NCBI RefSeq assembly: GCF_053078305.1
Contig: NZ_CP166879.1
Reading direction: 5' to 3' (one strand)
Length of the DNA stretch: 64,000 nt
A program made the translations under genes and the position numbers. This document shows, piece after piece, positions 36,446 to 40,464 of the stretch; positions within the stretch are counted from its first letter, which is position 1; each line of letters opens with the position of its first letter. Under the pieces are notes generated by a model. It saw only the letters and a list, made by a program, of their open reading frames with translations. It searched no databases and was not told the origin of the DNA.

Positions 36446-37375
36446 ATGGCAAACACTGCTGAGATATTCAATTTTCCAGTGCCGGATGTGGCACAAAAGG
36501 AGCCGCGCGTGGCAGATCTCGATGATGGTTATACGCGCATTGCAAATGAGTTGCTGGAAGCTGTAATGCTGGCCGGATTAACACAGCACCAGCTTCTGGT
36601 CTTCCTGGCTGTCATGCGCAAAACATATGGCTTTAATAAAAAACTGGATTGGGTGAGCAACGAGCAACTTTCCGAATTGACCGGGATATTGCCGCACAAG
36701 TGTTCTGCTGCAAAAAGCGTTCTGGTAAAGCGTGGGATTCTTATTCAGAGCGGGCGGAATATCGGCATCAATAATGTGGTCAGTGAATGGTCAACATTAC
36801 CCGAATCAGGTAAGAAAAATAAAGTTTACCTGAAAGAGGTAAATTTACCTGAATTAGGTAAGAAAAGTTTACCCAAATCAGGTAAAGGCACTTACCCGAA
36901 TCAGGTAAACACAAAAGACAAACTAACAAAAGACAATATAAAACCTTTTTCGTCCGAGAATTCTGACGAATCCTCTGACCAGCCAGAAAATGCCCTTCCT
37001 GTGGTGAAACCGGATGCTGCGATTCAGAGCGGCAGCAAGTGGGGGACAGCAGAAGACCTGACCGCCGCAGAGTGGATGTTTGACATGGTGAAGACCATCG
37101 CGCCATCAGCCAGAAAACCGAATTTTGCAGGGTGGGCTAACGATATCCGCCTGATGCGTGAACGTGACGGACGTAACCACCGCGACATGTGCGTGCTGTT
37201 CCGCTGGGCATGCCAGGACAACTTCTGGTCCGGTAACGTGCTAAGTCCGGCCAAACTCCGCGACAAGTGGACCCAACTCGAAATCAACCGTAACAAGCAA
37301 CAGGCAGGCGTGACAGCTAGCAAACCAAAACTCGACCTGACAAACACAGACTGGATTTACGGGGTGGATCTATGA
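36446..37375 (+). CDS. Replication initiator O-like protein
   Basis: ORF 36356-37375; N-terminal domain resembles lambda O (ADLDDGYTRIANELLEA); internal iterons; likely start ATG 36446. Confidence 0.75.
   Translation: MANTAEIFNFPVPDVAQKEPRVADLDDGYTRIANELLEAVMLAGLTQHQLLVFLAVMRKTYGFNKKLDWVSNEQLSELTGILPHKCSAAKSVLVKRGILIQSGRNIGINNVVSEWSTLPESGKKNKVYLKEVNLPELGKKSLPKSGKGTYPNQVNTKDKLTKDNIKPFSSENSDESSDQPENALPVVKPDAAIQSGSKWGTAEDLTAAEWMFDMVKTIAPSARKPNFAGWANDIRLMRERDGRNHRDMCVLFRWACQDNFWSGNVLSPAKLRDKWTQLEINRNKQQAGVTASKPKLDLTNTDWIYGVDL
36797..36912. repeat. Phage replication origin iterons inside the O gene
   Basis: Four to five direct repeats of about 16 bp (tacccgaatcaggtaa and variants). Confidence 0.55.
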
Positions 37376-38073
37376 AAAACATCGCCGCACAGATGATTAA
37401 CTTTGACCGTGAGCAGATGCGTCGGATCGCCAACAACATGCCGGAACAGTACGACGAAAAGCCGCAGGTACAGCAGGTAGCGCAGATCATCAATGGTGTG
37501 TTCAGCCAGTTACTGGCAACTTTCCCGGCGAGCCTGGCTAACCGGGACCAGAACGAACTGAACGAAATCCGCCGCCAGTGGGTTCTGGCTTTCCGGGAAA
37601 ACGGGATCACCACAATGGAACAGGTTAACGCAGGAATGCGCGTAGCCCGTCGGCAGAATCGACCATTCCTGCCATCACCCGGGCAGTTTGTTGCCTGGTG
37701 CCGGGAAGAAGCATCCGTTACTGCCGGGCTGCCAAACGCCAGCGAGCTGGTTGATATGGTTTACGAGTATTGCCGGAAGCGTGGCCTGTATCCGGATGCA
37801 GAGTCTTATCCATGGAAATCAAACGCGCACTACTGGTTGGTTACCAACCTGTATCAGAACATGCGGGCCAATGCGTTGACTGACGCGGAATTACGGCGCA
37901 AGGCTGCCGATGAACTGTCCTGTATGACCGTGCGAATTAACCGTGGTGAGGCTATACCTGAACCAGTAAAACAACTTCCTGTCATGGGCGGTAGACCTCT
38001 AAATCGTGCACAGGCTCTGGCGAAGATCGCAGAAATCAAAGCTAAGTTTGGGCTGAAAGGAGCAAGTGTATGA
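37372..38073 (+). CDS. Replication protein P (helicase loader)
   Basis: 233-aa protein matching lambda P along its length. Confidence 0.9.
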   Translation: MKNIAAQMINFDREQMRRIANNMPEQYDEKPQVQQVAQIINGVFSQLLATFPASLANRDQNELNEIRRQWVLAFRENGITTMEQVNAGMRVARRQNRPFLPSPGQFVAWCREEASVTAGLPNASELVDMVYEYCRKRGLYPDAESYPWKSNAHYWLVTNLYQNMRANALTDAELRRKAADELSCMTVRINRGEAIPEPVKQLPVMGGRPLNRAQALAKIAEIKAKFGLKGASV

Positions 38074-38243
38074 CGGGCAAAGAGGCAATTATTCATTATC
38101 TGGAGACGCACAAGAGCTTCTGTGCGCCGGACGTTGTTGCGACAACAGGTGTGACATTAACCAGCATAAATCAGGCTGCGGCAAAAATGGCGCGGGCAGG
38201 AATCCTGGTCATTGATGGTAAGGTCTGGCGAACGTTTGTTTAA
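38070..38243 (+). CDS. Ren-like protein, C-terminally truncated (57 aa)
   Basis: Hand-translated ORF overlapping P stop: MTGKEAIIHYLETHKSFCAPDV... matches lambda Ren N-terminus, ends where the AT-rich cargo island begins. Confidence 0.45.
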   Translation: MTGKEAIIHYLETHKSFCAPDVVATTGVTLTSINQAAAKMARAGILVIDGKVWRTFV

Positions 38244-38389
38244 CGGTTAGCTACTCAGGATGATAGGGCGGGGCAAGTGAGTATGAAGCGGATTTTCAGG
38301 AATGCCGTCAGAGTTTGGAAATAAAGTGGGTTTTCTAGTGGCAAGAGACTTGATAATATTTAGTTCTTTAAATCCAAGGAGATAGGGTT

Positions 38390-38884
38390 ATGAGAAAATT
38401 TATTTTAGCCTTTGTCATAAGTGCCTCGTTTACAGCAAATGCTGGTGTAGAGAAGTTAGGGCCGTGGATAACAAAGTCTGAGATAAATAAAATGACTGAC
38501 CAGACTGACTTTGTGGCTCTTAATTTATCACCAGATTCATATAACAAAGCAGGTACTGATCGTGCAACTTCACTGGTGTTGCGTTGTAGTGATAACAAAA
38601 CAGATGCCTATTTATCATTCAATGATTATATGGGTTCGGACAACCCAAGAATTACAGTGCGGTTAGATGGCGGAAAGCCGGTCAAGAGTGTTTGGGGAGG
38701 TGGGGAAGGCGGTGATTCTGCATTTGCTCCACAACCAATACAATTTATAAAGACCTTGGCTAAGCATAAAAAAGCTATTTTTGGGTTTGAACCTTATGGA
38801 TCAACTATGCAAGTAGTTGAGTTTGACTTGTCTGAGATTGATAAGGTTGTGGAAAAAATTTCACAGTCTTGCAATTGGAAATGA
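38390..38884 (+). CDS. Secreted/periplasmic protein of unknown function (nin-region cargo)
   Basis: 164-aa ORF with N-terminal signal peptide, good RBS aaggag, low GC. Confidence 0.5.
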   Translation: MRKFILAFVISASFTANAGVEKLGPWITKSEINKMTDQTDFVALNLSPDSYNKAGTDRATSLVLRCSDNKTDAYLSFNDYMGSDNPRITVRLDGGKPVKSVWGGGEGGDSAFAPQPIQFIKTLAKHKKAIFGFEPYGSTMQVVEFDLSEIDKVVEKISQSCNWK

Positions 38885-38902
38885 CAAAAAAATTTCATAT
38901 GA

Positions 38903-38926
38903 ACCCAGTTGGCGCTGGGTTTTTTA
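38903..38926 (+). terminator. Rho-independent terminator
   Basis: cccag...ctggg hairpin followed by TTTTTT. Confidence 0.5.
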
Positions 38927-39255: not shown

Positions 39256-39582
39256 ATGAAACCGAAGAAACTAAGAGCTGAGCAGCAGTACCATTTAGAC
39301 CTTGAATTAGTAAAGAAGAAGCCAGCGAACCGCACCGAGGCAAAAGCCCATTTGGCGGCACAATTACGGATTAGCAAGTACAAGACGCAGGCCTCTTCCA
39401 AAATTCGCGTTGGTAGTTTCAAGGGAAGAAAGAAGGTGCATTTTAGCCAGGCGGAAGAAGATGCTAGGAAGGCAATGGCTAAAGCTAATGCAGTTAGGTT
39501 TTCAGAAGGTGAGGTTGAATCCGTTGATACAGAAAGAATATCAGAAAGTAACAAACGCTGGCGCGGGAGAACCGCTGACTAA
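39256..39582 (+). CDS. Small lysine-rich basic protein of unknown function
   Basis: ORF 39238-39582 (TTG); likely ATG 39256 (MKPKKLRAEQQ...). Confidence 0.4.
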   Translation: MKPKKLRAEQQYHLDLELVKKKPANRTEAKAHLAAQLRISKYKTQASSKIRVGSFKGRKKVHFSQAEEDARKAMAKANAVRFSEGEVESVDTERISESNKRWRGRTAD

Positions 39583-39686
39583 TGTCTGATTTAGATATTG
39601 CAGCAAAGCTGTATGAAGAAAACACATTCATGGGCAGATGTGACATTACAGGGAGTTTTAGTTTTCAATTGCTGAAGACATCGAAT

Positions 39687-39710
39687 CATATTCATATTCA
39701 TATTCATATT
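39687..39710. repeat. Hexanucleotide tandem repeat (CATATT)x4
   Basis: Four perfect tandem copies 17 bp upstream of the ATG at 39728. Confidence 0.9.
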
Positions 39711-39727
39711 GTTTTGAGGGGTAATTT

Positions 39728-40273
39728 ATGGATGCAGGGATAGCCTCAGTTGTCGCCGCAATTATTGCCGCAGCTGCAGCTGGAGTGGGGCTTGTTATCA
39801 CTAAGGAGAATAAAACATCTGAGTTTCGGCAAGCGTGGATAGATGGTTTAAGGGAAGAGTTAGCCGAATTGATGGAGAACTTTTTACAATTACGCACGAC
39901 TCCGCCTGAGAAGCTCCCTGAGGTGGCTGGAAAAATTTATTTTCTTTCCGCAAAAGTGAAGCTTAGGTTATCCAGTAAAAACTTAACTAATGAAGAGTCT
40001 CAGCTTTTGAAAATCATTGAGGATTACATTTTAAAAATGGATCGCTCATCTAACATTACAGATGTGGTCAGACAGTATTTTGAATATAGTTCCAGTGTTC
40101 TTAAAACTGAGTGGGAGAGAGTGAAGCGAGGCGAGAAAAAATACAGAGTCGCTATCACGGTTTCGTACTCAATATTGGTTTTTTTGGGGCTCTATTTTGC
40201 TTCACGTTTCATTCCAGCGATAAGTGAAAAAATCTTAGAAATTATAGAGTTTTTAAATTATTCGTTGTTCTGA
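39728..40273 (+). CDS. Membrane protein of unknown function (TM helices at both termini)
   Basis: 181-aa ORF with RBS gagggg; hydrophobic N- and C-terminal segments flanking a charged central region. Confidence 0.5.
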   Translation: MDAGIASVVAAIIAAAAAGVGLVITKENKTSEFRQAWIDGLREELAELMENFLQLRTTPPEKLPEVAGKIYFLSAKVKLRLSSKNLTNEESQLLKIIEDYILKMDRSSNITDVVRQYFEYSSSVLKTEWERVKRGEKKYRVAITVSYSILVFLGLYFASRFIPAISEKILEIIEFLNYSLF

Positions 40274-40464
40274 TGACAAGCTTTGATTTTCCATAATCAA
40301 CTTGTCATAATTAAGTCACCGGAGCCTGAACAACTCCGGTGACTTCTGCGCTAAACGGGGACGTTTATGCGCACATACAATCCAAACTCTCTTCTCCCTT
40401 CACAGATGCAGAAATGTACCTGCGATTTTTTGCATCCAGCGTTTGACCTCTGCGGAGGTGAATC

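Follow-up and report, generated by a model that had tools for sequence, protein, structure and literature searches.

A polymorphic CATATT hexanucleotide repeat in the leader of a membrane-protein gene cassette in a lambdoid prophage of Escherichia coli

Gene content of the prophage region and the replacement cassette

The window, that is, the whole 64-kb stretch of DNA that was analysed, represents a lambdoid prophage of E. coli of the phage 82 / DLP12-like type. The genes neighbouring the CATATT tract share their orientation with the replication genes O and P and with the antiterminator gene Q. The features of the region are as follows.

Upstream of the tract, + strand, in order: replication genes O and P; frameshifted ren
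38390-38884, + strand: TagO/VasI-like secreted-protein gene
39256-39582, + strand: 108-aa gene, phrog_14068 (E = 4e-64), PGAP WP_001598055.1; it also precedes theta in the related prophage locus L003
39582-39620, + strand: 5' remnant, 13 codons, of a phage DNA polymerase III theta gene (HolE/Hot-like), MSDLDIAAKLYEE
39582-39743, + strand: hybrid ORF of 53 aa (51 aa in 3-copy alleles), which reads the repeat as HIHIHI(HI)
39621-40281, + strand: replacement cassette, comprising a 107-nt unique leader (with the repeat) and the 181-aa gene
39658-39897, - strand: 79-aa antisense ORF with YEYEYEY, spurious
39687-39710, + strand: perfect (CATATT)x4 tract
39711-39727, + strand: 17-nt spacer from repeat to start codon, GTTTTGAGGGGTAATTT
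39728-40273, + strand: 181-aa cargo gene, PGAP WP_021557039.1, two TM helices
Downstream of the 181-aa gene, + strand: orf33, ybcN (annotated here as 'DNA base-flipping protein YbcN'), ninE, ybcO, rusA, ylcG and antiterminator Q

The four tandem copies of CATATT are preceded by a T at position 39686, and the Tandem Repeats Finder entry for the tract consequently spans 39686-39710, with a period of 6, 4.2 copies and 100% matches. No second perfect array of at least four copies with a period of 4-9 was present in the 64-kb window. As 300 dinucleotide-preserving shuffles of the window gave an expectation of 0.007 such arrays per shuffle, a chance origin of the array was excluded. The spacer between the repeat and the ATG at 39728 carries a strong Shine-Dalgarno sequence, GAGGGG, at 39716-39721, 6 nt ahead of the start codon. 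The original prediction had described a perfect fourfold repeat ending 17 bp ahead of this ATG, and both points agree with the sequence, the first also with the Tandem Repeats Finder result. It had further regarded the YEYEYEY reading frame on the opposite strand as probably spurious, a judgement that was upheld because this ORF lies antisense to the part of the 181-aa gene that encodes its conserved N-terminus.

Comparative searches recovered 333 homologues of the 181-aa protein across Proteobacteria, with 17 residues invariant in 48 aligned family members, and close relatives compared at the DNA level use the same start, with ATG-GAC/T codons. On these comparisons, the 181-aa gene is genuine. 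Carriage of the gene was found in 14/5426 complete E. coli genomes, and the exact protein was indexed in 2,248 blocks of a larger assembly collection. No family for the protein was matched in Pfam, PHROGs or PADLOC. Among the more than 300 members of the family, the invariant motifs are KE.K.SEFRQ.W near TM1 and EW..VK.GE before TM2. The AlphaFold2 model (pLDDT 90.6) is all helical, with an N-terminal TM helix, a four-helix bundle and a C-terminal TM helix. A Foldseek search of this model against PDB returned nothing at E = 0.001 or better; the nearest PDB shapes were TM-flanked four-helix-bundle sensor domains, e.g. those of QseE and NarQ, a resemblance only and below significance. The predicted structure may be likened to a histidine kinase sensor module without the output domain.

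The left end of the cassette was defined by comparison with prophages that carry an intact theta gene. The theta CDS of L003 begins at the base equivalent to 39582, as does the annotated theta of other prophages. Alignment to L003 showed about 84% identity across the 108-aa gene and the first 13 codons of theta, with homology ending at 39620, and the sequences H75-H83, in which theta is annotated, likewise match the window only as far as 39620. In a blastp search, residues 1-13 of the hybrid ORF were 69% identical to the L003 theta protein, with nothing matching beyond, and the theta domain (PF06440, about 75-85 aa) gave no Pfam match in the hybrid ORF. To judge from this homology, the hybrid ORF is a theta remnant and not a theta gene. 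On the right side, homology to phage 82, DLP12 and thousands of E. coli genomes was found only from 40282 onward. The segment 39621-40281, between the end of theta homology and the return of phage-82-type homology at 40282, is a cassette that replaced most of theta. The 107-nt leader at its left end had no other match in E. coli genomes, and it showed no similarity to theta past codon 13 or to the leaders of relatives. The locus records the replacement of a phage theta gene by a cassette, with a translatable 13-codon stub fused to a new leader.

The ATG of the hybrid ORF, which the original prediction had not mentioned, overlaps the TAA of the 108-aa gene (TAATG, 39580-84), and its stop codon lies 13 nt inside the 181-aa gene, giving an overlap of 16 nt (39728-43). 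The frame was open, as 51 or 53 aa, in 43/43 loci checked; it is left unannotated by PGAP and has been called as a 51- or 53-aa gene by other callers in several assemblies. The right junction lies 8 nt past the stop codon of the 181-aa gene. No terminator-like site was found between 39217 and 40185, the nearest being at 40185-40204, inside the 181-aa gene, or at 40407-40424, 130 nt downstream. The lack of a terminator between the 108-aa and 181-aa genes, together with the three overlapping frames, suggests that the 181-aa gene would be co-transcribed without a local promoter.

In Klebsiella, Pantoea, Citrobacter and Enterobacter, the family occurs in prophage early regions, usually adjoining theta genes. 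The leaders of relatives in Enterobacter and at locus L034 (both 72-76% identity) and in Citrobacter (59%) are unrelated to the E. coli leader and are without the repeat, and similarity to the Enterobacter and Citrobacter loci starts only at the Shine-Dalgarno sequence, (T)GAGGGG / GGAGGG. The E. coli leader is not a conserved version of the regulatory region of the relatives. Relatives of the gene keep an upstream gap of 60-240 bp, in which some have good promoter-like sites (11.8 bits in L030), and this suggests that the gene may normally carry its own regulatory region.

The cassette is present or absent among similar prophages, since L003 holds theta and another gene at the same position. 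In this respect, and in its location between conserved early genes and its small membrane-protein product, it resembles the morons or nin-region cassettes of lambdoid phages. Classic morons have their own promoter and terminator; in the present cassette no convincing promoter was found, and the right junction follows the stop codon after only 8 nt.

Several further observations were made in the region. Insertion of the 181-aa gene cassette into or next to phage DNA polymerase III theta genes seems to have recurred: theta genes adjoin the homologue in Klebsiella and Pantoea loci, and the homologue in a Citrobacter prophage lies between a truncated 65-aa theta on its upstream side (L035:2722-2919) and a full 85-aa theta on its downstream side (L035:4210-4467). 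Directly after the cassette, at 40283-40311, lies TTGATT-17-CATAAT with an upstream TG. The phage 82 record X92588.1 annotates this site as a putative -35/-10 and, after it, a repeat as a 'possible regulator-binding site' upstream of orf33/orf151 (ybcN). A second cargo unit, at 38390-38922, encodes a 164-aa signal-peptide protein annotated as TagO (type VI secretion-associated), for which the VasI Pfam match was marginal and the phrog_1848 match strong. The gene is followed by a good intrinsic-terminator-like hairpin at 38901-38922, and in strain X14-3 (L015) an IS1 lies just upstream of it and the gene is cut short by the insertion. The ren gene (38070-38338) is a pseudogene according to PGAP, being frameshifted with an internal stop in 14/14 complete genomes with the region, and only a 57-aa N-terminal ORF is left. 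Within the O replication gene, tandem repeats of period 19 (36820-36861) and period 7 (36907-36936) were present, which probably correspond to the iterons and the neighbouring AT-rich region of the lambdoid origin. Tandem Repeats Finder also reported (GTAGTTTTTC) x3.3, with 95% identity, at 52518-52550.

Copy number of the repeat among homologous loci

Copy number was determined in 44 E. coli-type loci, namely the window (1), complete RefSeq genomes (14), IMG/VR contigs (12), metagenome contigs (2) and assemblies (15). The 15 assembly loci were reached through exact protein variants, and the IMG/VR and metagenome loci were found with a pattern that permits 1-11 copies. A pattern scan for the locus in a genome-contig collection gave no match, and no copy of the cassette was found in a phage collection. 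The repeat was present in 3 copies in 33 loci and in 4 copies in the other 11, and no allele with 1, 2 or at least 5 copies occurred among the 44 loci. The copy number among homologous loci, which had been proposed as a check on the repeat, is thus variable and not invariant.

Haplotypes were defined over the 1020-bp cargo unit, which contains 17 SNP sites. Haplotype W, which includes the window, carried 3 copies in 8 loci and 4 copies in 9, so that both alleles sit on an identical core haplotype; a further 8 loci, one SNP away from W, all had 3 copies. Haplotype D had 3 copies in all of its loci (14/14), and haplotype E (L023, L052) had 4 copies in both. When longer flanks were included, the 4-copy alleles were found on two different P-gene backgrounds, and two 3-copy loci (L002, L042) differed from the 4-copy locus L001 at one site in 4.4 kb.

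A four-gamete argument gives no strict proof of recurrent slippage, since all four gametes are likewise present for the SNP pair 40324/41170; recombination is therefore active in the region and can shuffle alleles. The safe statement is that at least two independent length changes are indicated by these comparisons. This number follows from the separate standing of haplotype E, whose nearest distinguishing marker lies as close as 17 bp to the tract, so that its allele is unlikely to have been imported by recombination. Set against 17 SNP sites in 1020 bp, at least two events put change of the tract at about 100 times the single-site rate. The rate of change appears elevated but modest, as expected of a short microsatellite, and, to judge from these population counts, it would lie orders of magnitude below that of a contingency locus, where a tract long enough to be hypermutable, many length alleles and switching at 1e-5 to 1e-2 per division would be expected. 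Polymorphism in whole units, together with at least two changes, is the signature of slipped-strand mispairing and indicates that the tract is mutable by slippage. Of the mechanism put forward in the original prediction, copy-number change by slipped-strand mispairing was thus borne out by the 3- and 4-copy alleles and the two or more events, while the proposed shift in promoter spacing was not, as no respaced site was found (see below). In practical terms, the tract provides a clean two-allele length marker for the prophage lineage.

The P gene was observed to be mosaic. Between 37800 and 38137, comparison of the window with L001, L025 and others revealed at least three allele blocks, with clusters of 11-25 SNPs on cargo haplotypes that do not differ in other respects. 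Mosaic recombination has left a clear trace here, no more than a few hundred bases away from the cargo region.

Promoter candidates and predicted RNA structure of the leader

As the 17 nt downstream of the repeat are filled by the Shine-Dalgarno sequence and its spacer, the tract itself and the sequence upstream of it are the only places for a -10 element; with a -10 on the downstream side, transcription would start within the ribosome-binding site or beyond it. A sigma-70 consensus scan found no site at the repeat. A position weight matrix (PWM), a crude one built from consensus frequencies, was then run on synthetic alleles with 0-7 copies. The best sites were the same for the 3- and 4-copy alleles, namely TTCAAT-17-CATATT (6.3 bits) and TTGCTG-18-CATATT (6.1 bits). 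In both, a -35 in the left flank is paired with a -10 in repeat unit 1 or 2, and extra units at the opposite end of the tract therefore leave the spacing as it is. Sites of at least 6 bits numbered 924 in 128 kb (both strands), about 1 per 140 nt, or about 0.8 expected per 107-nt leader, and the two candidates accordingly score at background level. In the same PWM scan, no pair of hexamers flanking the tract scored for the 3- or 4-copy allele, and spacing-dependent combinations arose only at 2 or at least 5 copies, alleles that were never observed.

The original prediction had placed the repeat in a promoter, where copy-number change would reset the spacing of the elements. This is contradicted by the geometry of the Shine-Dalgarno sequence and finds no support in the consensus and PWM scans, and there is further evidence against such a promoter switch in the occurrence of two alleles only, in a tract far shorter than those of characterised repeat switches, and in the absence of the repeat alongside the gene in other genera. 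The sequence gave no support to a repeat that sits in a promoter or acts as an on/off switch. Real copy-number variation upstream of a gene need not mean a promoter switch.

Other possible effects of copy number on the leader were also considered. Partition-function folding gave a mean unpaired probability of 0.39-0.42 for the SD-AUG segment over 2-6 copies, and an effect on mRNA structure was rejected because the predicted accessibility of the ribosome site is flat over this range. A search of the leader against Rfam returned no RNA family at E = 1 or better. Phase variation at the level of translation requires a unit that is not a multiple of 3; the repeat lies inside an ORF but its unit is 6 nt, so the frame of the hybrid ORF is kept and switching of the frameshift type is impossible.

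Interpretation of the repeat and alternative explanations

The reading that we consider reasonably probable is that the tract is a short, mildly mutable and near-neutral microsatellite, situated in a recombination-junction leader, on the early-operon transcript and inside the theta-stub ORF. The cassette with the 181-aa membrane-protein gene replaced most of theta within the early-right (nin) region, and the repeat would be transcribed within the early-right operon. The hybrid ORF starts at the old theta start codon and is presumably translated. Replication slippage would add or remove one CATATT unit occasionally, and the two alleles, of 3 and 4 copies, are both present in the population. Each one-unit change would lengthen or shorten a peptide that is probably functionless by one His-Ile, and the leader by 6 nt, with the ribosome-binding site unchanged. 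Since the frame is kept and the ribosome-binding site is unaltered, the change in length is most likely neutral or nearly so and would not constitute a switch. Neutrality of the 3- and 4-copy alleles is what we infer, and a small effect on expression is possible.

Among known systems, the ordinary bacterial microsatellite or VNTR fits the CATATT tract best. Short tracts fall into the proto-mutable and mutable classes of simple-sequence repeat (SSR), and units in coding sequence that are multiples of a triplet do not switch expression (PMC4235727). In common with such loci, the tract has few units, indels of whole units and few alleles, and its rate of change is well above substitution and far below that of contingency loci, in keeping with composition and slippage and not with selected mutability. 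It is special in comparison with an ordinary microsatellite only in its position, at a recombination junction and within a theta-remnant ORF.

Several observations count against this reading. The alleles are both common and nearly 1:1 on haplotype W, and selection favouring switching could produce such mixing on near-identical backgrounds. The first unit of the repeat is itself -10-like (4/6, including the key A2 and T6) and lies 17 nt after TTCAAT, and this combination may act as a weak promoter with the other units in its 5'UTR. The upstream gap kept by relatives, with good promoter-like sites in some, also counts against it.

The leading functional rival is graded control of the type described for H. 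influenzae hmw, which we nevertheless regard as unlikely. Unit 1 or 2 would serve as the -10, with the other units in a very short 5'UTR, and an extra unit would move the distance from the transcription start to the Shine-Dalgarno sequence by 6 nt, thereby modulating the 181-aa gene in lysogens without a full on/off effect. In H. influenzae hmw1A and hmw2A, a heptanucleotide (ATCTTTC)n lies upstream in 13-24 or more units with many alleles (PMC8262952). In hmw1A, the 7-bp repeat forms part of the 5'UTR and extends over the -10 box of P2, the working promoter, and expression falls as copies are added (PMC8262952). The topology at the CATATT tract is that of hmw1A (PMC8262952), with a unit longer than 5 nt between the promoter region and the start codon, a first unit that overlaps a -10-like hexamer, and a polymorphic copy number that lengthens the 5' leader and not the -35/-10 spacer. 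Each unit matches TATAAT at 4/6 positions with A2 and T6, candidate -35 hexamers lie 17-18 nt away, and the relatives retain an upstream gap, some with strong promoter-like sites. Against this, the candidates (6.1-6.3 bits) are at background level and below the threshold of the consensus scan, the predicted accessibility of the Shine-Dalgarno sequence is unchanged, and the leader is not conserved with the gene. Unlike hmw, where promoters have been mapped, graded effects measured and 13-24 units with many alleles recorded, the present locus has 3-4 units, two alleles and no convincing promoter, and its unit is a multiple of 3 and lies inside an ORF. Modulation of the cargo gene by the repeat, were it real, would offer a handle on an uncharacterised and widespread family of prophage membrane proteins, and would represent an SSR switch both in E. 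coli and in a temperate phage.

Translational coupling, which we consider quite unlikely, would have ribosomes from the 108-aa gene enter the hybrid ORF and affect translation of the cargo gene by re-initiation or occlusion, with the length of the His-Ile run or the run of CAU-AUU codons tuning the number of arriving ribosomes. The two gene overlaps (TAATG at 39580-84 and 16 nt at 39728-43) are consistent with this, as is the start-stop overlap shared by relatives with intact theta. The integrity of the ORF in all 43 loci, across three haplotype groups and despite 4 substitutions, points the same way, but the approximately 40 open codons past the junction are only mildly unlikely by chance (about 0.1 by our own estimate). 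Of the substitutions in the hybrid ORF, 3/5 are non-synonymous, and this preponderance gives no sign of constraint on the peptide. The 181-aa gene, moreover, has its own strong Shine-Dalgarno sequence, and we know of no mechanism that would make one extra His-Ile matter.

Taken by itself, the proposition that the toggle between 3 and 4 copies is a functional low-amplitude switch, whether through an hmw-like 5'UTR length or through the hybrid ORF, is improbable. If it were correct, the near-even mixture of alleles on one haplotype would reflect selection for switching. To our knowledge, phase variation in E. coli proceeds by DNA inversion (fim) or Dam methylation (pap, agn43) and not by simple-sequence repeats, so a functional CATATT toggle would be unusual.

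An array of operators, in which the hexamers bind a regulator that reads hexamer arrays (Fur: at least 3 NATWAT units) and copy number sets the affinity, is very improbable. CATATT agrees with NATWAT at 5/6 positions, and the 4-copy tract scores 13/19 against the 19-bp Fur consensus and 10/14 against the 7-1-7 model. Fur control of a prophage gene has a precedent in iron-regulated stx1, which was counted in favour. The commoner 3-copy allele, however, scores 12/19, about 20 other places in the window reach at least 13/19, and the leaders of relatives score 10-13 with nothing conserved. A good score is to be expected of any AT-rich hexamer repeat, since the Fur consensus too is built of tandem hexamers. 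A Fur box or hexamer operator was accordingly rejected, the match being at window background and the site unconserved. In N. meningitidis nadA, a TAAA repeat alters the spacing of distal operators (PMC2791445). The CATATT tract would be similar as a repeat outside a core promoter whose length could change the phasing of flanking protein-binding sites. The nadA tract is flanked on both sides by defined NadR operators and an IHF site and lies upstream of the core promoter, whereas neither flanking operators nor a core promoter could be identified at the CATATT tract.

Promoter-spacer switches are known from the TA repeats of H. influenzae hifA/hifB and the homopolymer tracts of N. meningitidis opc and porA. 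Like the present locus, these have, ahead of a gene, a repeat that undergoes slipped-strand changes and varies in length among strains. Their tracts separate the -35 from the -10 element and change in steps of 1-2 bp, unlike the CATATT tract, which is directly followed by the Shine-Dalgarno sequence and changes by 6 bp. On/off phase variation by a repeat between -35 and -10, with 6-bp steps leaving or entering the 16-18 bp optimum, is therefore scarcely credible: the copy number does differ among strains and the repeat is AT-rich and directly upstream of the gene, but the -10 would have to fit into the 17 nt occupied by the Shine-Dalgarno sequence and its spacer, no flanking hexamer pair scores, spacing-dependent combinations are confined to unobserved copy numbers, and a 6-bp step overshoots the 16-18 bp window, so that at most one allele could be 'on'.

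One minor feature of the leader was noted in addition. The 12 nt at the left cassette junction (39620-39631, AAACACATTCAT) match the start of the repeat region (39684-39695, AATCATATTCAT) at 10/12 positions. This direct repeat is probably due to chance; it could also hint at how the tract or the junction arose.
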